NCBI GenBank assembly: GCA_944392445.1
Contig: CALXWT010000002.1
Span: forward strand, 9,367-73,366
DNA from: an uncultured Clostridia bacterium
Lineage (GTDB): Bacteria; Bacillota; Clostridia; TANB77; CAG-508
DNA length: 64,000 bases
Reading direction: 5' to 3'
Positions 19,132-42,053 of the stretch are shown here, piece after piece. Both the position numbers and the translations under genes were made by a program. Under the pieces are notes generated by a model, which had not been told where the DNA came from, did no database searches, and worked only from the letters and a program-made list of their open reading frames with translations. Numbering within the stretch: position 1 is the first letter of the stretch; every line of letters starts with the position of its first letter.

Positions 19132-19196
19132 ACTATCTATAACTTTAAGAATAGCTTTACAAATAATTAAATTCTTAAGGAAAGGAGTTTTATTTT

Positions 19197-19400
19197 TTAG
19201 CGCCTGGACACAGAGTTAAGCAATGCAAATAATAGATTTGTTGTAATTCTGCTAGCTTTTAGCAAAGTTCAAAGCACCTGTGTTGACGAGGTAGAGACTT
19301 ATCGAAAGATTCGGCGGATGGTCTCTTGGTACTAGATTACTACCATAAATATTAGTCAAAACCTTGCAGTGATGCAAGTATACAAAGCTAATAGAGTAGT
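19197..19400 (+). ncRNA. glmS ribozyme (GlcN6P-dependent self-cleaving riboswitch) in the glmS 5' UTR
   Basis: A^GCGCCTGGAC at the cleavage site. The conserved core gacgaggtagagacttatcgaaagattcggcggatggtctc closely matches the Bacillus glmS ribozyme core GACGAGGATGGAGGTTATCGAATTTTCGGCGGATGCCTCC. It sits directly upstream of glmS. The end coordinate is approximate. Confidence 0.85.
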
Positions 19401-19564
19401 CTTTATTTGTAATGCTTTCTTGAAATTAAATGCTAAGAAAAGCAATCTACACGCAATAATATGAATAATTATTAGCATAGTTTTATAGTTTTTTAGCACA
19501 AAAATGTGTAACTTATTAAAGTTTATTTAATAAAGGTACATATATGTTTTAAGGAGGTATTTTT

Positions 19565-29557: not shown

Positions 29558-30443
29558 CTACAAAATTGCGCCAATCATACCAGCATCATTCTTTAGCTCT
29601 GCTAGTACTATTTTAGGTACATCATCTTTGTTAAAGGTATATTTTCTTTTTTGCATTTCGGTTACAAGTTTTTCGTAGAATAAGTCTTTAAAATATACAA
29701 AGCTACCTCCAAAGCTAATTGCTTCTGGCTCAAAAATATCAATTACATTTGATAGTCCTATTATGAGGTTATCTATATATTCATCTATTAAATTTTTAAT
29801 TTCATAGCTATCTTTATTTCTCTTTATTTCTTCTAGTAGCTCTTCTGATGTTATATTATCTATGTTTAATATTTTTTTTGCCTTTTCTTTAAATCTTTTC
29901 ATCGCACAATAAGTCTCGAAGCATCCTTTTTTTCCGACAATTACATTGTTCTCCATTTCTCTCTATTACAAGATGTCCTAATTCAAAGCCTATATGTTTA
30001 TTTGCTTTTAAAATTTCACCATTTAAAAATACTGCTGAGCCAATTCCTGTACCTAAACAAAGAAATACAGCATCTTTATATGTTTTTAAAGAACCATATT
30101 TAAATTCTGCTAGTCCCGCTGATTTTGAATCATTTTTTAATTTTATTGGTATATTATGCTTTTGAAAAATGCCTTTAAAATCCAATTTTTCAATTCCAAG
30201 ATTAACTATGTTTGAAATACTTAAGTCATTAACTTTTGGGTTTCCTGGACTTGCTATTCCTATTAGTTCTATATTGTATTTTTCTTTAAACTTGCATATA
30301 TAAGAATCTATTATATCTAAAATCTCGGATGATATATTTTCGTTCTTTTCTATATCCACTTCAAACTTTTCTACGATTTTATCTTTATCATTTATTAAAG
30401 CAATTCCAATATGGCTTCCTCCTAAATCTATGCCTATTTTCAT
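29558..30443 (-). pseudogene. glcK: ROK-family glucokinase, split by a frameshift in a 7-nt homopolymer (plus-strand T7 at 29927-29933)
   Basis: The N-terminal ORF ends ...ELGHLVIERNGEQCNC then RKKRMLRDLLCDEKI-stop. The C-terminal ORF resumes ...GKKGCFETYCAM... One fewer A restores the ROK CxCGxxGC(F/L)E motif. Confidence 0.7.
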
Positions 30444-30672: not shown

Positions 30673-32029
30673 CTAAATTGGCAAATCCACCGCATCAAAT
30701 ATCCAAGTACCCATATATAATTGTATACAAGGAACAATTATAACAATTACTAAGAATATTAAGAATACACCAACTATTGAGTAAACAATTTGTGGTAATA
30801 CTGCCATAACTTTTTGCATTAAGTTGTTAATATCTATTTCCATATATTCAACTAACTTTCTCATCATTTCTGGTAAGTCTGTTTGCATACCTATTTTTAA
30901 CATCTCTGTTTGCATTGATGAGCAAAGTCCTGAATTTTCAAATGGTTCTATCCACGATGCACCAATTAATATATTGTTTATTGCTGTTTCTATAATTGAA
31001 AGCATAACATAATTTTTGGCTACTGCTTTACTTACCTCCAATGAATCTTGAATTCTCATACCATTTTCTAAGTTTAAAAGCATTGCTCTCATAAATCTTG
31101 AGAAATCCATAGCAAATATTAATTTACCAAATACTGGCATTTTATATTTAAAATAGTGGAAATTATATTTTCCTCTCGGAGTATTTATATAGAATATTAT
31201 TACTCCTACAATTGCTGCTATAACTATTACTGGTATATACCATATCTGCATTAATTTATTACAGAAGTCCACAAACCACAAAGTTATTTCTGGAAGAGTT
31301 TGAGTCGTTCCTGTTTCAGCAAAAGCATCTTGTATTAACGGTATAATATATGCAACACCAAATATTATCAAAGCTATAATTGCTAGTAGTTGCAATACAT
31401 TTGGTATTATTATTTTTCTTAATCTACTCCCCGTAGAATCAACATCCTCTAAGTATTTTACTGCTTGTTCTAATGATTGTGTTAAGTTACCAGACATTTC
31501 TCCTACTTTAATCATGTTTATATATATATATGGAAATATATTAGAATAATATTCCATAGTCGTATACATATAATCTCCGCCCCTCAACTCCAGCTAAAAT
31601 ATCTTGTAAAACTCCTTTTAGAGTTAAATTATCTGTACTATCTATAATAGTGCTTAAGGCATGTATATTATTAAAACTTGCTCTTTTTAAAAGATAGAAA
31701 TTTTGAGTAAAAATTATAATATCTCTCGTTGTTATTTTTTCTTCTCTTGATAGCGCTAAATTTACTCTTTCTTTTAGCGAAGGTTTTGCAGTAGTTCTTC
31801 CGTTCATTATATTAGCGGAATTTGCTTGTTTCATAATGTCATCAATATCCATTATATTCTTTCTGTTTGCTTTAGTCTTTTTACTTCTATATCCTACTTG
31901 CACTATGCTTATTGGTAGTAAATTACTATTTTTTAGCTTCTTTATAAGAGATTTTTTACTTACGTCCTCTACTCTATTTCGTACAATTTGTCCCTTTGAA
32001 GTTACTGCTTTATAAATATATTCTGGCAT
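30673..32029 (-). pseudogene. pilC: Type IV pilus platform protein PilC (GspF family), frameshifted in a G4/C4 run at 31580-31583
   Basis: The N-terminal ORF ends ...ILAGVEG then RRLYVYDYGILF-stop. The second ORF resumes ...GGDYMYTTMEYYSNIFPYIYINMIKVGEMSGNL..., a GspF motif. One fewer G joins the two parts. Confidence 0.75.
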
Positions 32030-32052
32030 CTTTCTCTCCTTTCTACATTTTT

Positions 32053-33183
32053 TTATACACTATAACTATTGTCTGTTTGATTACTTCTTTCCCTTTTTAT
32101 TTTTAATTGCATTATAGTTCTGTTTAAAGTTTCTAAATTTTTCTCTTCTATTTGTGCCTTAGCTTGGTCTAAAGTTATTATATCATCTACAAAAAGTTCT
32201 GACAATGAATTTATTAATCCGATACTTCCTTTTTCTAGATTACTTTGTATTGCATCTTCTATTTCTGATACGCTTATTTTTTCTTTTCTTATTATACCAG
32301 ACACCACGTTATCAACTACCATTACTTCTGGAACTAATACAAGTTCCCCGTTTTTTCCTGGTAATAGTCTTTGAGAAATAACTAGCTTTAATAATGAAGC
32401 TATTAAGAATTTAACTGTTTGTTGGTCTCTTATTTCGTAGAAGTTTACCATTCTGTCGATAGTTTCAGCACAAGTTTTTGTGTGAAGTGTAGCAATAACT
32501 AGGTGTCCTGCTTCTGCTGTCTCTATAGCTGCTTCCATGGTTTCTCTATCTCTAATCTCTCCTATTACTAGTATATCGCAGTCCTCTCTTAAGCAGTTTT
32601 TTACACCATCACTATAACACAAACAGTCTCTACCTGCTCCAACTTCTTTTTGTACTATAATAGATTTTTTACTTGTATGCTTATACTCTACTGGGCTTTC
32701 TAGTGTAAGTATTTTTTTGTTTTGATGTTCATTTATTTCATTAATTAGAGCATTTAATGTTGTTGTTTTACCAGAGTTAGTTTTACCAGTAACCAGTATT
32801 AACCCTTGTGGCTGATATGTCATTCTTCTTACTATATCTGGTACCCCCAAGTCCTCATACTTTGGTAATTCGTTTTTTATAAGTCTTAGCGTAAATAGTG
32901 GTATCTCATCAGATAAAGAAATATTTACCCTTAGACGTATATCTTCAAAAACAAACGAAGTATCTAACTTTTTAGTTTCCTTAAATACCCTGTCTTTATC
33001 AATATTTCCTCTTACTAAATAGTCATATATGTCGTACATATCCTCCTCTACAAGTGGTGATGGACAATCATATTCAACTAATGTTCTTCTTATTCTTAGC
33101 ATTGGTTTCAAATTACATATAAGATGTATATCCGAAGCATCCTTTTCCATTGCTGTTTTTATAATTTTATCAATATCTATCAT
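32053..33183 (-). CDS. pilT: Type IV pilus retraction ATPase PilT
   Basis: 376 aa. Walker A GKTNSGKTTT and Asp/His boxes are present. Size and motifs fit PilT rather than PilB. Confidence 0.85.
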   Translation of the reverse strand: MIDIDKIIKTAMEKDASDIHLICNLKPMLRIRRTLVEYDCPSPLVEEDMYDIYDYLVRGNIDKDRVFKETKKLDTSFVFEDIRLRVNISLSDEIPLFTLRLIKNELPKYEDLGVPDIVRRMTYQPQGLILVTGKTNSGKTTTLNALINEINEHQNKKILTLESPVEYKHTSKKSIIVQKEVGAGRDCLCYSDGVKNCLREDCDILVIGEIRDRETMEAAIETAEAGHLVIATLHTKTCAETIDRMVNFYEIRDQQTVKFLIASLLKLVISQRLLPGKNGELVLVPEVMVVDNVVSGIIRKEKISVSEIEDAIQSNLEKGSIGLINSLSELFVDDIITLDQAKAQIEEKNLETLNRTIMQLKIKRERSNQTDNSYSV

Positions 33184-33201
33184 TGGTTACCTCCCCAATT
33201 A

Positions 33202-34827
33202 TTAATATAGTGCTAATTTATTATTTAGCTCACTCATATTTGTTGTCCCATTTATTACCTTTTTTATTCCATCTATAATTAATGGAAGATATCCTTGCTC
33301 GAGTGCAACTTTTCTAATGTCAAATGCAGATTCATCTTCAACTATTAGATTTCTCAAAGTATCATTTATCAATAGGATTTCAAACATACCAACTCTTCCG
33401 TAATATCCAGTATTATTACAATTCTTACATCCTACAGCATCGAATGTTTTCTTACCGTTTAAGTCAAATTTAACATTATATTTATCTCCTATTTTCTTTA
33501 TAAATTCTTTTTCTTGTTCATTAAAATCTCTTTCTTTTGCACAATGTGGACATAATTTTCTTACCAATCTTTGTGATACTGAAGTTGCAAGGGTACTAGA
33601 AATATCATAATTAGATACTCCCATTTTTCTAAGCCTTGTAATAACTTCTATTGCATCAATGGTGTGTATTGTTGATAAAACATAGTGACCTGTTTGTCCA
33701 GCTTGCATTGCAATTTCTGCAGTTTCCTGATCTCTTATTTCTCCAACAAGTATAATATCTGGGTCTTGTCTTAAAACTGTTCTTAATGAATCGGCAAATG
33801 TAATTTTTGGGTCAACCTCTATTTGGTTTAATCCGTTAATTCTTATTTCAACTGGATCTTCAATAGTGGTTATATTTATTTCCGGTCTATTCAAATAATC
33901 TATAATACTATATAAGGTAGTAGTTTTACCTTCTCCCGTTGGTGCTGCTATAACAGTTATACTATTTTTCTTGTTAAAAGCTTCTTTTACTAATTTATCA
34001 TCTTTTGGAAAACCTAAATCGAATATTGACCTTATATCCTCATTTTTCTTTAATAGCCTTAAAACAAATTTCTCTCCATATATATTCTTTTGAGAAGATA
34101 CACGAATGTTATAATCAGGATACATTATAATTCTACCATCCTGTGATTCTTGCTTTTCTTGATGCATATTTGATATTGCTTTTAGTCTACCAATTATTTG
34201 AGCTTGTTTTTCTTTTCCTATGTTAGCTTCATTTATTAAAACACCATCTATTCTATATCTAACTCTCATTCCATCTTGCATTGGTTCAATGTGAATATCA
34301 CTTGCTCTTTTTTCCATAGCTGTTTTTATAATACTATCTACAAATCCTGATGCATCTGTATTTAAATCAATTGTATCTGATGTAGATGAAAACGAGTTTA
34401 GTATTAAATCAATGTTTGTTTCAAAAGTAATATATTTTTCCATTACAAGACCTTTATTTAAAAGCAAAAGTCTAATTGTCTCAACAGCTCTTCTATTAGA
34501 AGTATCTGCAAAACATACTTTAATTTTTCCTCCTATTTCTTCAAAGGGTACTGCCTTATATTGTCTTGCTATATCTATTGATAAATAGTCTGCCAAATTT
34601 ACTTTTATATCTGCCTCTCTTAAATATATAGCTTTTTCTTCTAGAATTTCTCCCATCGCATCTATTAATACATAAGGGTCGCATAGTCTTAATATATTTA
34701 GAATATCACCTATTTTTTTATTAGGTTCTGCTTTTTGATAGTCTAATGCTCTTTCGATATCCTCTTCAGTTACAATTCCTCTTTTTACTAGCTCTATTCC
34801 TAATGGTTGTCTTTTTTTTGAATCCAT
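33202..34827 (-). CDS. pilB: Type IV pilus assembly ATPase PilB (GspE family) with N-terminal GSPII domain and tetracysteine motif
   Basis: 541 aa. Walker A APTGEGKTTT and CPHC...CKNC zinc motif are present. Confidence 0.9.
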   Translation of the reverse strand: MDSKKRQPLGIELVKRGIVTEEDIERALDYQKAEPNKKIGDILNILRLCDPYVLIDAMGEILEEKAIYLREADIKVNLADYLSIDIARQYKAVPFEEIGGKIKVCFADTSNRRAVETIRLLLLNKGLVMEKYITFETNIDLILNSFSSTSDTIDLNTDASGFVDSIIKTAMEKRASDIHIEPMQDGMRVRYRIDGVLINEANIGKEKQAQIIGRLKAISNMHQEKQESQDGRIIMYPDYNIRVSSQKNIYGEKFVLRLLKKNEDIRSIFDLGFPKDDKLVKEAFNKKNSITVIAAPTGEGKTTTLYSIIDYLNRPEINITTIEDPVEIRINGLNQIEVDPKITFADSLRTVLRQDPDIILVGEIRDQETAEIAMQAGQTGHYVLSTIHTIDAIEVITRLRKMGVSNYDISSTLATSVSQRLVRKLCPHCAKERDFNEQEKEFIKKIGDKYNVKFDLNGKKTFDAVGCKNCNNTGYYGRVGMFEILLINDTLRNLIVEDESAFDIRKVALEQGYLPLIIDGIKKVINGTTNMSELNNKLALY

Positions 34828-34887
34828 AAATCTTCTCCTTTCATTTGTTTTATATATTATATATTATCTACATTTTATAAAAATTTA

Positions 34888-35334
34888 TTACCAATATTTT
34901 AGGGTAAAATCAATGTCTTGTGTCAAAGATTCTTCTTCATCTTCACCAATTTTTAGATTTACAGTAATTATATTTTTTGAAAATGAATTAACAGTGTATG
35001 GCCACATTGTAAAATTACAATCCATTACATATTCTGCAATTATTAAATCATCTCTATATATTACTCCATCTTGATATTTATAAGTTGGACCATTTTCAAA
35101 TTCTATAGTATCACTAGTAACAGTTGCTGAACTATAATCTTTTACATCTGTAACAAAAAACATATTAAACTTATTAAATTCTGCAAGGTACTTAGGTGTA
35201 TGTAATACTCCACCTATATTTGTATAAAAATAAGTACTTATTGTAGTCATAATTGCTATAACTATAGTAAGAGCTATAACATACAATACAAGAGAAACTA
35301 AAGTAACACCTTTTTGATTAGTTTTCATTTGCAT
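34888..35334 (-). CDS. Minor pilin-like protein (class III signal MQMKTNQKG^VTLVS..., no Glu at +5)
   Basis: Prepilin-type leader with Gly then hydrophobic helix. 148 aa. Confidence 0.5.
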   Translation of the reverse strand: MQMKTNQKGVTLVSLVLYVIALTIVIAIMTTISTYFYTNIGGVLHTPKYLAEFNKFNMFFVTDVKDYSSATVTSDTIEFENGPTYKYQDGVIYRDDLIIAEYVMDCNFTMWPYTVNSFSKNIITVNLKIGEDEEESLTQDIDFTLKYW

Positions 35335-35378
35335 TATTCTTCAGCACTCCTTTCTTTTTTGTTCTCACTACTTTTTTA

Positions 35379-35810
35379 TTAGTCACTCTCTGTTTCTTTA
35401 ATTTTTAGTTTTTGCACTTCATATTCATTTGTCTCTCCTTGTAGTGTATATGCAATTCTTAAATTTACTATTTTTATTAAATCTTCCTCGCCATCTTCAT
35501 AATCGTTAAACTCCAAACTTATGTCAAACCCTTCTGGTATAGAGAATAGTCCTCTATAATACTCACCGGTTTTAGTTTGAGCTTCCTCATAAGAAACCTT
35601 ATCAATATCTTCTAAAATTTCTACTGCATAAATTGCCATTCTTGCTGTTAATCTCGTTTCCATGTTTGTTTTATATACATAAGTCATTAATGCTGATATT
35701 GTACCAACAAATATTGTAATCATTATGCAAGCTCCAATTATATCTTGCATCGTAAAGCCTTTTTCAGATTTAAGTTTAATTTTTATATTTTCAACAATTT
35801 TTTTCATCAT
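35379..35810 (-). CDS. Minor pilin-like protein (leader ...KSEKG^FTMQD, Asp at +5)
   Basis: Prepilin-type N-terminus. 143 aa. Confidence 0.5.
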   Translation of the reverse strand: MMKKIVENIKIKLKSEKGFTMQDIIGACIMITIFVGTISALMTYVYKTNMETRLTARMAIYAVEILEDIDKVSYEEAQTKTGEYYRGLFSIPEGFDISLEFNDYEDGEEDLIKIVNLRIAYTLQGETNEYEVQKLKIKETESD

Positions 35811-35821
35811 ATCACCTAAAA

Positions 35822-36637
35822 TTATCTATAAAATACTATAAAATTTGTTGCAAGTAGAACAATTATGTTAGAAACACACATATAAAAGCCAATAGGAACT
35901 TTTGGATTTTCTATTTTTACCTTTTTTACTACTTTACTCTGTTTCTTTTGTAATTTGCATATTAACAATTGAATTGATATAGCAAGTAAAGTAATTATAA
36001 CTGTATAAATATATACTGTTTCATAAGTAAATAAAACCATAAGCATAGACAATATTAAAGTATCTATAGTATAGCTATCTTTTCCTTTATTTCGCAGATA
36101 AGCAATACTAAATAGAAGTAATAAGCAAGCTAATATTAAATAAATAACATATCTATAAATATTAGTATTATTTTCTACTATATATAGATATATCATATAT
36201 AGTGTAACACAAATAAAGCCAAATAATAGAACTGGCTTTTCTATTTCTATTCTTTCTTTATCTATTCCTGCTATAATAAACAATGTTGCTATATATAAAG
36301 CTCCAACTACTAAATAAATTATTGTTTGGGCATTAAGTGTAAATAAGCTTAACTTAATAGAAAGAGCAAAAAACACAAAGACTAATCCAGATAATATTTC
36401 TAATAATAAATATCTTATTCTAATTTTTTTTCCACAATACCTACACTTTCCACCTAAAAAAGTATAGCTTAATATTGGTATCATATCTAGAAATGTTAAT
36501 TTATGCTTACAATTTGGACAATATGAACGAGTGTGTGTTATATCTTGTCCTAACGGAATTCTATAAACTGCTAATGTAAAAAAGCTACCAAATAATGCTC
36601 CTATACAAAATATAAGTAAATACAATATATAGTCCAT
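35822..36637 (-). CDS. pilD: Prepilin peptidase PilD (A24 family)
   Basis: N-terminal CPNC...CRYC zinc motif is present. The transmembrane core has ...IAGIDKER... The C-terminal second Asp motif is divergent. Confidence 0.7.
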   Translation of the reverse strand: MDYILYLLIFCIGALFGSFFTLAVYRIPLGQDITHTRSYCPNCKHKLTFLDMIPILSYTFLGGKCRYCGKKIRIRYLLLEILSGLVFVFFALSIKLSLFTLNAQTIIYLVVGALYIATLFIIAGIDKERIEIEKPVLLFGFICVTLYMIYLYIVENNTNIYRYVIYLILACLLLLFSIAYLRNKGKDSYTIDTLILSMLMVLFTYETVYIYTVIITLLAISIQLLICKLQKKQSKVVKKVKIENPKVPIGFYMCVSNIIVLLATNFIVFYR

Positions 36638-36794
36638 ACGCCCTCCTTATTTTAAAATAGAGATTATACTTAAAATATAATTATATATTTTAAATTATAT
36701 TTGAATAGTATAATCTCTTTTATTTTAGTTTAAAGAAATTTTAAACCGTTTAAAATCTTTTAAAAATTTTTAATTAGCTATTTTATGTGATTAC

Positions 36795-37019
36795 TCAGTT
36801 TAATGCATTTTCAGATAATTGTTGCAATAAATTATCTATATTTGTAAGATGATCAGATTCTTCTTTTGATGCATTTGAGTATAACTCTGAACCTTGTTGT
36901 GCTCTTCCAAATAAGTTACCACCTATAGCAAAGTTGATTGATACTGTTGCTAATATAATTAAAACAACTATTGTTATAACTAATGCAACTAAAGTAATAC
37001 CTTTTTGATTCTTAAACAT
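36795..37019 (-). CDS. Very short pilin-like protein (74 aa; leader MFKNQKG^ITLVALV, Ala at +5) with strong RBS AGGAGGAG
   Basis: Class III signal-peptide architecture with the strongest RBS in the cluster. It lacks the conserved Glu5. Confidence 0.5.
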   Translation of the reverse strand: MFKNQKGITLVALVITIVVLIILATVSINFAIGGNLFGRAQQGSELYSNASKEESDHLTNIDNLLQQLSENALN

Positions 37020-37101
37020 AAAAAACTCCTCCTTTAAATTTTTTTGTGTATATCTATATAAAATAAATATAACCTAAGTTACTTATGAATTAAATATTTT
37101 A

Positions 37102-37542
37102 CTATTTAATTCCTTCTTCATTAAAAAATGTGCCTGTTGAATTTTCATCTACTGTTCCTGAACCACTATTATTGCTGTTGTTATTTGTATTGGTGTTTTG
37201 ACCACCATTTCCATCATTTGTGTTTGTATTATTTTCATCTGTTGTACTCTCTAAAGAGAATGGATTTGCTTTACCTTCTGTATAGCTTCCAGTTTGTTTA
37301 TATATATTTAAGTCTGCATCTGTAACTTCATAAGTTACCTCTACCTTTTCTGTTTCTGTTATGTCTTCATTTATTTCATTCTTAACTTCGTCAGGCGTAG
37401 TATATGCTTCTCTTTCTGGTACAACTTTATTTATAGGAATATAGTCATAAAACAGTATTCCTAAAATTAGTAATATAGCTATACTTAAAAGTAATATTAT
37501 AAAAATTTCTTTTATTACTGATTTTAGCATATTTACCTCCAT
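37102..37542 (-). CDS. Membrane-anchored protein with Asn/Thr-rich C-terminus (pilus-cluster protein of unknown role)
   Basis: 146 aa. N-terminal transmembrane segment, then low-complexity NTNTNDGNGGQNTNTNNNSNNSGSG. Confidence 0.45.
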   Translation of the reverse strand: MEVNMLKSVIKEIFIILLLSIAILLILGILFYDYIPINKVVPEREAYTTPDEVKNEINEDITETEKVEVTYEVTDADLNIYKQTGSYTEGKANPFSLESTTDENNTNTNDGNGGQNTNTNNNSNNSGSGTVDENSTGTFFNEEGIK

Positions 37543-37547
37543 TTCTT

Positions 37548-38276
37548 TTATTGTGCAACTACGTTTGTATTAGTATTATCTGTACTATTAGTATTATCTG
37601 TACTATTAGTATTGTCTGTACTATCTGCAGTGTCGTTAGTACCATCAGTTGTATTTTCATCTTCAGTTGTTCCACCAACAGTTGCTGTTGTATCTTCTAT
37701 ATTGATTCTAATTCCTTCTACAGTAAATGTTGCTTGTAAGTTATCTTCAGTACTAGGTGTTAAATGAAAATCATCTATTCTAAAATTAAGTTCACTATCT
37801 TCTTCTAATGCTGATACGAAGTCCATAATTGCTAGATATTGTCCTACTACTGTAAAGTCTAAATTCTTTGTAACTGAATCTCCAGCATCTCCAGTTAGAA
37901 CCTCCATTCTCATATTTACGCCTTCAGTTCTTGCATGTCTTCCAACTCTTACCCACAAATATTCAATGTTATATGTTTCTTGTGTACTTGCGGCAGTTAT
38001 TTCACTTTCGGTACTTACATTTGCCAAGTTATAATAGCTTGTTTTATTTGCTAATAATACCTCTATGTTTTCTTTTAATTCTGATTCTTTTGATTGTAAA
38101 TCACTTTTAATCTTTCTATTGGTCTCTTCTATTTCTGTTGTTAAATTATCATTTAGTTCAAAAATTCCTCCTACACTTAAAACATTAAGTGAACCTATTG
38201 ATAACCCTTGGGCGATGGTGAAATATGCCAGTACAATTAATAAGACTAATAAAATTGTAATTAATAATTTTCTCAT
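37548..38276 (-). CDS. pilO: PilO-like type IV pilus assembly protein with C-terminal (S/T)DNTN repeats
   Basis: N-terminal transmembrane segment then coiled coil, typical of PilO. The C-terminus is ...DTADSTDNTNSTDNTNSTDNTNTN. Confidence 0.55.
   Translation of the reverse strand: MRKLLITILLVLLIVLAYFTIAQGLSIGSLNVLSVGGIFELNDNLTTEIEETNRKIKSDLQSKESELKENIEVLLANKTSYYNLANVSTESEITAASTQETYNIEYLWVRVGRHARTEGVNMRMEVLTGDAGDSVTKNLDFTVVGQYLAIMDFVSALEEDSELNFRIDDFHLTPSTEDNLQATFTVEGIRINIEDTTATVGGTTEDENTTDGTNDTADSTDNTNSTDNTNSTDNTNTNVVAQ
37568..37630. repeat. 18-bp tandem repeat x3 (agtattatctgtactatt) encoding the STDNTN repeats
   Basis: Read directly from the sequence. Confidence 0.7.
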
Positions 38277-39892
38277 GGCAAATCCCCCTCTATAACTATT
38301 TTAACAAAGTCGCCTTGTTTTTCACCTTGTGTTGATACAACATTATCTAATATTCCATCTTCACTTAGTCTAGCTTTAAAATATCCAAGTTCATCATAGT
38401 ATTGTGATTGAGCATAAATTATAATGTGTCTATTATTATTGCTTGAAGTATTTTCTATTTCTGTTATTTGTACTGCTTGTGGTATACTAGAGGCAATTTG
38501 CATTAATAATGTTGGAATTGTTCCCTTTAAGCTTAAGTTGTCCTCTATTTGTGTATTAATATTTCTTAAATTATTCTCCATCTCTTGGTATTCGTTTGCT
38601 TTTTGTTTTACTCTATTTATATCGCTTTCCGCCATTGCAATTTGTGTATCTGTATATTGACTTACCGATTCTGTTTCTGCTATTTTTTCGCTTATTCTGT
38701 TATCCAAATATATAGCAAAGCCAGAATACAATATTGTAAGCATTAATACTCCAATAGTTCCTCTAAGTAGCCATCTTTCTGTTGCATCTAATTTACCTTT
38801 TAAGCTAACATCAATATTTAATTTTTTCTTGCTTTCTTTTTTGCCAGACCCTATATCTATTTTTAGCCAGTCTGGTATTTGGTCCGAAAAGCTTGGCTTT
38901 TTAAAGTTCATATTTTTTATTCCATAGCCCAATCCTTGCATTGCAACTGCTATAGCTGAATTTACTTCTATATAATCTTTAATGTTTATTTTTAAACTTT
39001 CTTTAATAAAATATGGCTTTAATATTTCACATTTTTTTCCTTGGAAAAATTCTTGGAAATATAAATCTATATTATTTACAACTGACATTGTTCCAGTTAT
39101 ATATATTTTTGAAAATTTTACTGTAGATGTAGTTACATAATCTTGAAGTTTTGTAACTATTTTGTATAATGTTGGCATTATATATTCTAAATACTCATTT
39201 TCTTCGTCCTGTAATTCTTTTCCCTCCATAGTATATATTGTTGTATTTTTGCAAATTTCATAAGCTTTTGAAAATGAATTTTCTTTTTTAGCAATTTTGT
39301 CTAAAATTTCCTCTGCGCCTTCTTCTAATTTGGTTACATTATATACTTTTTGATTAGTAATGGTTGTAATAGTTGTTTTATTTTCAATATTTACTATTAT
39401 TATATTTTCTTTTGGCTTTATTTCTGCAACATTTGCAATGCTCATACCAATCGGAGTAATCATAGATACTTTATTATCGCCTAATACCTGTAGTGATTTT
39501 GTAATTGATGATTTGTTTGAAGAAACATGAATTGCTTTCACTCTATCTTTGTCTTCAATTTCATTAGAAATAGCAAATCTAGTTTCAAAAGCATTTTTAT
39601 TTAGTTTTCTATCATAGCAATAAGATTCAAATTCAGTATCTACTGCTTTTTTTAAATCATTCTTATTTAATAGACTAAACATGTAAAAATAGTTGTATAT
39701 TTCTTCTGCCAAATTGATACTAATTGGTATATTGTAACTAAATGTTTCTGATACTATTTGTTCTATTGCCTCTCCAATTTTTTCATAAAATTTAACACCG
39801 AAAGCCTCTACTTTTAGATTCTCTCGATCTTTAGTTACTTTTGCATATTTAATTACATTGTTTTCTATAAATAATCCTAAACAGCTTGACAT
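38273..39892 (-). CDS. pilMN: PilM-PilN fusion protein (actin-like PilM domain + transmembrane/coiled-coil PilN domain); start at the ATG after AAGGAG
   Basis: MSSCLGLFIENNVIKYAKV... starts the PilM-like ATPase fold (about 330 aa). Then ...RWLLRGTIGVLMLTILYSGFAIYLDNRISEKIAE... is the transmembrane plus coiled-coil PilN part. Confidence 0.75.
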   Translation of the reverse strand: MSSCLGLFIENNVIKYAKVTKDRENLKVEAFGVKFYEKIGEAIEQIVSETFSYNIPISINLAEEIYNYFYMFSLLNKNDLKKAVDTEFESYCYDRKLNKNAFETRFAISNEIEDKDRVKAIHVSSNKSSITKSLQVLGDNKVSMITPIGMSIANVAEIKPKENIIIVNIENKTTITTITNQKVYNVTKLEEGAEEILDKIAKKENSFSKAYEICKNTTIYTMEGKELQDEENEYLEYIMPTLYKIVTKLQDYVTTSTVKFSKIYITGTMSVVNNIDLYFQEFFQGKKCEILKPYFIKESLKINIKDYIEVNSAIAVAMQGLGYGIKNMNFKKPSFSDQIPDWLKIDIGSGKKESKKKLNIDVSLKGKLDATERWLLRGTIGVLMLTILYSGFAIYLDNRISEKIAETESVSQYTDTQIAMAESDINRVKQKANEYQEMENNLRNINTQIEDNLSLKGTIPTLLMQIASSIPQAVQITEIENTSSNNNRHIIIYAQSQYYDELGYFKARLSEDGILDNVVSTQGEKQGDFVKIVIEGDLP

Positions 39893-40147
39893 TTTATTCT
39901 CCTTCGTTTTTATTTGCACCATTATTATATTTTGCAAAATGTAACAAAATAATACTTGTATTTTTTTCCTTTTTTAAAATTTTCTACAATATAATCACAG
40001 TTCTGTTATTATTTTATCTTTTTTTATAAAAAAGTCAATATAAATCATTATAATTTAATATAAATGTAATATTTTCGTAATATTTTTGTAATATTTGTTT
40101 TTAAATTTTATAAAAAAAAAGAATATAATCCTTTTTTCGACATTCTA

Positions 40148-41096: not shown

Positions 41097-42053
41097 TTAA
41101 ATTTTTATTAATTTATCAATTGTTTCTTTTATATACTTTCCTGCTGTTCTTGGCATTTCTTTTCCCGGAATTCCTAGAGCAGTTATTACTTTTAGTCCAA
41201 GCTTATTTGCACTTTCTTTGTTAATTCCTCCTGGAGCAGATGCCACATCTATTATTAAAACATTTTTATTAAATAATTTTAGTTGTTCTTCTTCTAATAT
41301 TATTTGTGGTACTGTATTAATTAATATATCAATCTTGTCTGCAAAATTTGATATTTCCGTATATCGTAATGGTATATATCTTTTTTCTCTTATCCAAGCT
41401 AAATCGCTTTCTTTTCGAGCTACGCAATACACATTGGCTCCTAATTTATTAAATCTGTCACATAATATCTTGCCAATTCTTCCAAAACCACATACAAGCA
41501 CATTGCTTTCATGTATTGTTTCTTCTCTTTCTTCTATTGCGAGCTTAATTGTGCCTTCAACCGTTGGAATTGCATTTAAAATAGTAAGTTCTTCTACTTT
41601 TAGCAAATCTACTAAATCTATATTTTCTATTTTTTTTGTTTCTTTTTCGATATAGTAGTTTTTTGGAATTCCACCCGCAAAAAATATTTTACTTGAAGTT
41701 TCATTAAAAAGTTTGTTTTTTAATTCTTCCAGTTTAATTTCTTCATTTGCAAATGGAGCATTTACAGTAATTTTGTCTTTTGTAAAAGGCATGCCACTTA
41801 CAATACAATTTGAATTTGCAATAACTTCTTCTAAGCTGTTGCATAAAAAAATGTTGTTAAACTTTTCATTGCTTCTATGTACTTCATCATTTATATTTTT
41901 ATTATGTACTTTTGCCTCTGTCTGTTTGCTATAGCCTTTTTCTTTATCAAAATATTTTTCTAAACCATAAGTATATACGTTATAGTTATCTTTTGCATAC
42001 ATTTCTGCTAATCTTATAATACGCAAATCTCCACCTATTATAGATATATTCAT
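41097..42053 (-). CDS. dpaA: Dipicolinate synthase subunit A (SpoVFA/DpaA)
   Basis: ...NAIPTVEGTIKLAIEE...VCGFGRIGK...LGANVYCVARK...IDILINTVP...LIIDVASAPGG...ALGIPGKEMPRTAG... aligns block-by-block with B. subtilis SpoVFA (match recalled from memory). Confidence 0.75.
   Translation of the reverse strand: MNISIIGGDLRIIRLAEMYAKDNYNVYTYGLEKYFDKEKGYSKQTEAKVHNKNINDEVHRSNEKFNNIFLCNSLEEVIANSNCIVSGMPFTKDKITVNAPFANEEIKLEELKNKLFNETSSKIFFAGGIPKNYYIEKETKKIENIDLVDLLKVEELTILNAIPTVEGTIKLAIEEREETIHESNVLVCGFGRIGKILCDRFNKLGANVYCVARKESDLAWIREKRYIPLRYTEISNFADKIDILINTVPQIILEEEQLKLFNKNVLIIDVASAPGGINKESANKLGLKVITALGIPGKEMPRTAGKYIKETIDKLIKI

Follow-up and report, generated by a model that had tools for sequence, protein, structure and literature searches.

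The 64-kb stretch of DNA analysed here (the window) comes from an uncultured Clostridia bacterium, has a GC content of 27–33% and carries a type IV pilus gene cluster on its minus strand (39937..30673). In the order of transcription, the cluster encodes a fusion of PilM and PilN (PilM-N), a PilO-like protein, a small membrane protein designated X, a prepilin of 74 amino acids (aa), a PilD-like protein, two further prepilins of 143 and 148 aa, PilB, PilT and PilC. These open reading frames (ORFs) and their arrangement agree with a preliminary description of the locus, which gave the order as pilMN-pilO-X-pilin-pilD-minor pilin-minor pilin-pilB-pilT-pilC. None of the sources names any protein of the cluster.

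Prepilins and their residues at position +5

Three ORFs of the cluster encode proteins with a class III-type leader, i.e. a short, hydrophilic peptide ending in Gly and followed by about 21 hydrophobic residues. They are the 74-aa prepilin (36795..37019, minus strand), which begins with MFKNQKG↓ITLVA (the arrow marks the predicted cleavage site), and two minor prepilins with class III-like N-termini, one of 143/142 aa (35379..35810, minus strand; ...SEKG↓FTMQD) and one of 148 aa (34888..35334, minus strand; MQMKTNQKG↓VTLVS). A six-frame scan of the window revealed no further class-III-like ORF. The residue at position +5, read directly from the sequence, is Ala in the 74-aa, Asp in the 143-aa and Ser in the 148-aa protein, and in no case the Glu expected of a type IV pilin, just as the preliminary description had it. 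Gly-1 is invariant in all three families, which argues for cleavage of the leader.

The available protein models recognise these prepilins poorly. The curated cutoff of the Pfam N_methyl model (PF07963, IPR012902) is 21.2 bits; the 74-aa and 148-aa proteins, at 20.2 and 12.9 bits, respectively, both fall below it, and the 143-aa protein has no match to this model. The NCBIfam prepilin models gave no match at E ≤0.1 for any prepilin of the window.

A scan with the pilin alignment of one genome per GTDB species yielded 80 loci, and in total 86 loci (1.37 Mb) were inspected. These contain 169 class-III-like ORFs, in which residue +5 is Ala (91), Asp (33), Ser (19), Ile (10), Thr (7) or, in two cases, Glu, with both Glu5 proteins occupying the position of the 143-aa gene. 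Since the lack of Glu5 is conserved across the whole family, it is not due to chance.

The two minor prepilin families differ in the residue that they carry at this position. Orthologues of the 143-aa protein from 26 species, at 23–67% identity, all have Gly-1 and Asp+5, and two further orthologues have Glu. Judged from this alignment, Asp5 is a conserved acidic residue, i.e. the charge is not lost and one acidic +5 residue is kept in the system. The 143-aa protein had been counted among the pilins without Glu5; this is right as to the residue, which is Asp, but the negative charge has been retained. In the 148-aa family, residue +5 varies among orthologues (Ser, Ala, Thr, Ile or Gly). Such variability may fit a capping subunit, and known tip complexes are capped by a subunit without Glu5 (PMC10191384).

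The Ala5 family and the candidate major pilin

The candidate major pilin is the 74-aa prepilin (MFKNQKG↓ITLVALVITIVVLIILAT...), which would give a mature protein of 67 aa with Ala5 and Thr2 and with neither Gly14 nor Pro22. It has 473 close homologues, and the N-terminus is invariant among the 120 matches listed. The proteins in this list are 45–98 aa long, mostly 70–83 aa, and share the consensus M(F/L)K..(K/R)G↓ITLVALV(I/V)TI(V/I)(V/I)LIILAT; acidic residues are absent from the first ~30 mature positions, as are Gly14 and Pro22, and Thr2 never varies. In an exhaustive HMMER search with the pilin profile, which covered 1.84 billion cluster representatives, 29,267 clusters were matched at E ≤1e-3 and 9,935 at E ≤1e-10. 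The N-terminus is again invariant in the best 144 new (distant) representatives, none of which has Glu5. Among sequences in PDB, the best matches of the profile were type IV pilin N-termini, with Geobacter PilA-N (9egp_A, E 1.3e-4) in first place and MshA and PilA also represented. The Ala5 pilin family is broadly distributed and without annotation; in the literature, we found no earlier description of its N-terminal motif or of major pilins lacking Glu5.

The gene for the 74-aa prepilin is flanked by conserved signals. Upstream of it lies a conserved element (37020..37101, minus strand) containing an invariant 10-mer, GGTTATATTT, that starts at 37074 and is followed by ATATA(C/T)ACAAAAA and then by a strong ribosome-binding site, AAAGGAGGAG. 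In 32 loci, the exact 10-mer precedes the small-pilin ATG by 52–68 nt, and it never precedes the genes for the large Ala5 proteins described below. A sporulation promoter of the sigma-E/K type was considered for this element and dropped, as the distance between its two conserved blocks differs by several bases from species to species. An AU-rich stem-loop with a U-run after it (36650..36718, minus strand), located in the gap separating the pilin gene from pilD, resembles a terminator or attenuator. The intergenic fold at this junction has a minimum free energy of -27.4 kcal/mol (z = -3.7), and a strong hairpin of different sequence is present at the same place in nearly all of the clusters of ~30 related species. 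Being AU-rich, this hairpin was missed by a G+C-based terminator scan and was found by RNA folding of the region. Since highly expressed major pilin genes usually have this set of a promoter element, a ribosome-binding site and an embedded terminator, these signals favour the 74-aa protein, 67 aa and essentially one long helix when mature, as the major subunit.

The 80 loci of the scan are nearly all from uncultured gut Clostridia or from metagenome-assembled genomes (MAGs) labelled 'Clostridium sp.', with human, chicken, rabbit, sheep, mouse and other hosts. About 35 of the loci have an identical gene order, namely PilMN, PilO-like, X, the small G↓ITLVA pilin, PilD-like, an xxxxD pilin, an xTLTx pilin, PilB, PilT and PilC. 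The other ~40 encode proteins of 170–630 mature residues that share the G↓ITL(V/I)A N-terminus along with a ~70-aa helical module. The small pilin corresponds to this module over its full length, a further indirect sign that it may be the major subunit. Genes for these large Ala5 proteins often lie two or three in tandem, away from the machinery genes, and there are several such loci per MAG. The C-terminal parts contain GLUG, BspA-type leucine-rich repeat (LRR), FGE-sulfatase-like or DUF6273 domains. From this architecture the large Ala5 proteins look like modular pilins, a type of protein that is widespread in monoderms (PMC6916266). With their GLUG, BspA-LRR and lectin-like domains, they are candidate gut colonisation factors, and since the Pfam N_methyl and NCBIfam models miss the family, gut Clostridia probably have more type IV pili and modular-pilin adhesins than their annotation shows. 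Large paralogues were seen at loci L010, L015, L018, L021, L023-L026, L032, L037, L039, L043, L044, L051, L055-L058, L063, L064, L069-L073, L075, L079, L080, L083 and L084; MAGs with several such loci include RGIG5862, Lapin-005 bin70 and BRZ_FC bin61.

Taken together, these data incline us, if only slightly, to regard the cluster as a type IVa (T4a)-style pilus locus of a low-GC lineage of uncultured gut Clostridia, whose pilins have given up Glu5 and whose major pilin is the 74-aa Ala5 protein. It had been pointed out that a major pilin without Glu5 would be mechanistically notable; the invariance of Ala5 in thousands of proteins and the absence of a Glu5 pilin beside any of the about 35 orthologous clusters favour such a pilin without amounting to proof. 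The alternative raised at the same time was that all three are minor or initiator pilins of the ordinary kind, the machine being used by a canonical Glu5 major pilin whose gene lies at another site in the genome. A canonical prepilin peptidase might likewise be encoded outside the cluster. The DNA inspected comprises 64 kb of this genome and the 1.37 Mb of related loci, tip subunits without Glu5 are normal in well-studied systems (PMC10191384), and the peptidase domain encoded in the cluster looks degenerate (see below), all of which leave room for a pilin of this kind. We nevertheless consider it improbable. Not only do the orthologous clusters lack a neighbouring Glu5 pilin, but additional pilin-like genes at other places in these MAGs also encode Ala5 proteins without exception; the invariance of Ala5 in so huge a family fits a structural constraint better than it fits a few tip proteins; and the small gene, with its promoter element, ribosome-binding site and terminator, has the layout of one encoding a highly expressed subunit.

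If the 74-aa protein is the major pilin, assembly might proceed as follows: i) a T4a-type motor would polymerise the headless 67-aa Ala5 pilin, ii) the Asp5 and Ser5 proteins would be the two core minor pilins, priming or capping the filament, and iii) the large G↓ITL(V/I)A modular pilins would be built into, or presented by, the filament and would display their adhesin-like domains. In such a filament, each helix would probably remain unbroken and pack in the manner of Tad and archaeal type IV pili, with the salt bridge from Glu5 to the N-terminus unused and with Thr2 forming a hydrogen bond to the N-terminus of the neighbouring subunit. The lack of Glu5, Gly14 and Pro22, together with the invariant Thr2, makes the Tad and archaeal pili the closest structural precedent and the most likely model for the packing of an Ala5 filament.

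Assembly machinery and the frameshift in pilC

Both ATPases of the cluster are readily recognised. PilB, the extension ATPase (33202..34827, minus strand; 541 aa), matches PF00437 (7e-102) and has an MshEN-type N-terminal domain (PF05157, 31.6 bits); its best-scoring NCBIfam model is TIGR02538, at 415 bits, which is yet below the equivalog cutoff. The N-terminal ~60 residues of PilB also score 32.4 bits against NF053729, an MshE-related motif binding cyclic di-GMP (c-di-GMP), for which the cutoff is 38. The MshEN domain and this sub-cutoff match thus suggest that assembly may be controlled by c-di-GMP. The second ATPase (32053..33183, minus strand; 376 aa) aligns over its full length with TIGR01420 (312 bits, compared with a cutoff of 319) and is by this alignment a retraction ATPase of the PilT family, with retraction itself being a prediction. 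TadA-type models score far below the PilB and PilT models for both proteins.

The PilM-N fusion (38273..39937, minus strand) can be read as an ORF of 554 aa from a TTG at 39937, but the likely start is the ATG at 39892, which gives 539 aa and agrees with the public gene calls. PF05137 was matched in the C-terminal half of 21 of 28 orthologues (best 5e-6), and no Pfam model matched the window protein itself; the PilN half is accordingly confirmed by sequence through the orthologues. For the PilM half, an AlphaFold2 model was computed from a shallow alignment (75–100% identity) and is of low confidence (pLDDT 49.8). A Foldseek search with its better-predicted core, residues 160–320, had as top matches PilM structures (5eou/2ych/3jc8, E about 2e-6) from P. 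aeruginosa, T. thermophilus and M. xanthus, and the C-terminus of the model consists of a transmembrane helix, a long helix and a ferredoxin-like domain. This partial fold match of a low-confidence model lends the PilM half its support. The fusion of PilM and PilN in the preliminary description is thus borne out, firmly for PilN and to this lesser degree for PilM.

The matches of PilB and PilT include, among many other ATPase models, distant ones to the bindosome ATPase BasE, which bears on another possible function. The system might be a pseudopilus-type device for secretion or surface display, like the type II secretion system or the archaeal bindosome, forming no long pili and using the short Ala5 protein as a short piston, with the large Ala5 proteins being cargo or anchored by their N-terminal helix. 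Many large Ala5 proteins with binding-type domains, several of them in one MAG, would suit such a device, as would a 67-aa subunit without a globular head, and a recent study proposes that C. perfringens secretes via its type IV pilus genes (10.1101/2024.11.04.621531). A pseudopilus is, however, unlikely here, since a PilT-family ATPase together with a PilM-N/PilO-like set is typical of dynamic T4a pili and not of known secretion pseudopili, and headless pilins such as those of Tad do make long filaments (PMC10710030).

Several other components weigh against a working pilus built around the 74-aa pilin. One is the PilO-like protein (37548..38276, minus strand; 242 aa), a bitopic protein with an N-terminal transmembrane segment, then a coiled coil, and a low-complexity Thr/Asn/Asp tail. 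It is kept in every orthologous cluster, but no match was found for it in Pfam, among PDB profiles or to HofO, and the name PilO is assigned by position and topology only. The adjacent X (37102..37542, minus strand; 146/142 aa), a small bitopic membrane protein conserved at the same position in about 40 loci, has no family match in Pfam or NCBIfam. The C-terminal tails of both proteins (37548..37700 for PilO-like and 37102..37230 for X, minus strand) are low-complexity Thr/Asn/Asp/Gly repeats, e.g. TDNTNSTDNTNSTDNTN, and tail length varies between strains of the species, the PilO-like protein having 242 aa in L001 and 236 aa in L002-L006. More generally, profile searches against PDB sequences with the PilM-N, PilO-like, PilD-like, Asp5 and Ser5 families yielded no significant match, the hits being noise from coiled coils or zinc fingers, and hhalign gave no significant alignment with E. 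coli HofM, HofN, HofO or GspO.

The PilD-like protein (35822..36637, minus strand; 271 aa) is a second such component. Its N-terminal part is that of a bacterial prepilin peptidase, with a match to PF06750 (A24_N_bact, 1e-29), and residues 11–93 alone were aligned with E. coli PppA by hhalign, at 99% probability. Across 154 family members, the zinc-finger residues C40, C43, C65 and C68 are invariant except for one member at C40, and a G-K-C motif is near-invariant; as far as can be told from the sequences, the four-Cys zinc-finger domain of the methylase is kept. The peptidase half, which the preliminary description had passed over, is atypical and highly diverged by the same sequence comparisons. 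PF01478 is absent from the window protein and from the best 120 family members, and was matched weakly in one of 31 orthologues (E 0.005). The C-terminal membrane half was not aligned by hhalign, and a forced global alignment with PppA or GspO was meaningless. A good AlphaFold2 model (pLDDT 80.7) had no match in a Foldseek search of PDB. Two Asp residues of the window protein, D126 and D192, are spaced by 66 residues, compared with 65 in E. coli PppA and 64 in E. coli GspO, but the motifs GIDKE and YTID replace the canonical contexts and there is no GxGD. Of the 154 family members, 147 have Asp at position 126. Position 192 is less uniform, with Asp in 100 members, Glu in 30 and other residues in 24, and 11 members have no acidic residue at either 187 or 192. 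Since the second catalytic position is non-acidic in 24 of 154 members, the predicted processing of the Ala5 prepilins by this protein is uncertain.

The third component is PilC, which is not intact in the window. An N-terminal fragment of 162 aa (31541..32029, minus strand), with a weak T2SSF_N match, ends just past a frameshift, and a C-terminal fragment of 304/298 aa (30673..31587, minus strand; PF00482) aligns with positions 111–397 of the 401 residues of GspF; no intact protein with two T2SSF domains is encoded here. In comparison with six relatives, the G run at 31580..31583 is longer by one nucleotide, resulting in a +1 frameshift inside the first cytoplasmic domain. In most relatives, pilC is a single ORF of 446–457 aa, and the sister species has one of 451 aa in the same neighbourhood. 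The split is found in all six sampled contigs of the species, which come from six samples and two projects. The ROK-family sugar kinase gene beside pilC (29558..30443, minus strand) is likewise split, into ORFs of 184 and 132/114 aa, in all six contigs, while the sister species has one intact 294-aa ROK gene in the same place, making this a second fixed frameshift next to that of pilC. Sequencing error was rejected as the source of both splits, because six independent assemblies agree.

As pilC is frameshifted, the pilus machine may be inactive in this species. It had been concluded from the presence of PilT that the system is retractile; the PilT-family ATPase is indeed present, but with pilC broken the conclusion is unsafe here. 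We take seriously, although we do not favour, the explanation that the locus is a decaying relic in this species, which with PilC interrupted in its first cytoplasmic domain would form no filament, leaving its odd pilins without function. The insertion in the G run is shared by every contig sampled and the adjoining kinase gene is broken too. In one metagenome sample of the species (L005, 777..2395), moreover, PilM-N was called as two ORFs of 290 and 222 aa, which may represent further decay of the locus at strain level. On the other hand, all other genes of the cluster are intact, and the pilin, PilD and PilB sequences are identical or nearly so across many contigs (the window PilB is identical on 21 metagenome contigs), suggesting ongoing constraint or a recent event. 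Slippage in the G4 run could also bypass the frameshift, and platform proteins in two pieces exist in Tad systems, though the split there falls between the domains (PMC10191384). Decay in this species would be compatible with any of the readings considered here for the family as a whole, be it an Ala5 major pilin, a Glu5 pilin encoded elsewhere or a pseudopilus.

Two features outside the cluster are worth recording. Just upstream of it (41097..42053, minus strand) are a gene for dipicolinate synthase subunit A (DpaA_N) and uppP (BacA), an arrangement kept in the sister species; the presence of the DpaA gene suggests that the organism may form spores. A glmS ribozyme/riboswitch (19188..19403, plus strand; 89 bits, E 3e-19) sits in the sole stretch of the window with positive GC skew, at ~20–24 kb.

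Comparison with known type IV filaments

For bacterial type IV pilins, Glu5 is regarded as both a defining feature and a mechanistic necessity, credited with roles in charge neutralisation in the filament core, in subunit docking and, in Pseudomonas, in N-methylation. In a 2023 structural paper, it was stated to be absolutely conserved in bacterial type IV pili (PMC10710030), and a pilus made only of Ala5 pilins would, if real, break this rule. It would also offer a natural experiment, involving dozens of species and protein clusters in the tens of thousands, on how far Glu5 is really needed, and would tie bacterial T4a machines to filament packing of the Tad/archaeal style.

In its machinery, the cluster resembles the T4a pili of monoderms, such as those encoded by the C. 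difficile pilA1 cluster, by C. perfringens and by the S. sanguinis pil locus, which also have PilB, PilT, PilC, PilD, PilM, PilN and PilO in one cluster and a PilB whose N-terminal domain is of the MshEN type. A PilM-N fusion has been described before in C. difficile, and the PilO of monoderms has been called non-canonical, as the PilO-like protein is here (PMC6916266). The large Ala5 proteins can be likened to PilB and PilC of S. sanguinis, which are modular pilins with adhesive domains (PMC6916266). Unlike these systems, the window locus has no Glu5 pilin, its candidate major pilin is headless and of 67 aa, and the peptidase half of its PilD is unrecognisable.

Geobacter PilA-N, a truncated T4a pilin of 61–65 aa, is of similar length to the 74-aa pilin and likewise consists of the alpha-1 helix only. 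PilA-N, however, keeps Glu5 and pairs with PilA-C, whereas no PilA-C-like gene follows the small pilin gene, the next gene being pilD. Clusters for type IV filaments do include tip pilins without Glu5, those of the GspK and PilK/PilX class (PMC10191384), and the 148-aa protein may cap in the same manner. In the known systems, the subunit without Glu5 is a single one of low abundance; here, all pilins of the system lack Glu5, as does a paralogous family with thousands of members.

The pilin itself resembles those of the Tad/Flp (type IVc) and archaeal pili, which are also very short, all-helical and headless, with no Pro22 and a conserved Thr2. Glu5 is missing from archaeal pilins; in the Tad pilus it takes no part in a salt bridge, the helices run on without a break and Thr2 bonds to the N-terminus (PMC10710030). 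The genes set the locus apart from Tad/Flp: the pilin reads G↓ITLVAL in place of the Flp motif G↓xxxxEY, there are no TadA-, TadB-, TadC- or TadV-type genes, PilT is present, and the platform is of the PilC type, a single two-domain protein. The PilD-like protein, moreover, has the bacterial methylase domain, which TadV lacks (PMC10191384). It is possible, and we propose it tentatively, that uncultured gut Clostridia possess type IV filaments forming a separate, very large class among those of bacteria, in which major and modular pilins are all Ala5, assembly and retraction are of the T4a type and dispense with the salt bridge, the packing is probably like that of Tad and archaeal pili, and PilD is a variant with the methylase domain and without GxGD.

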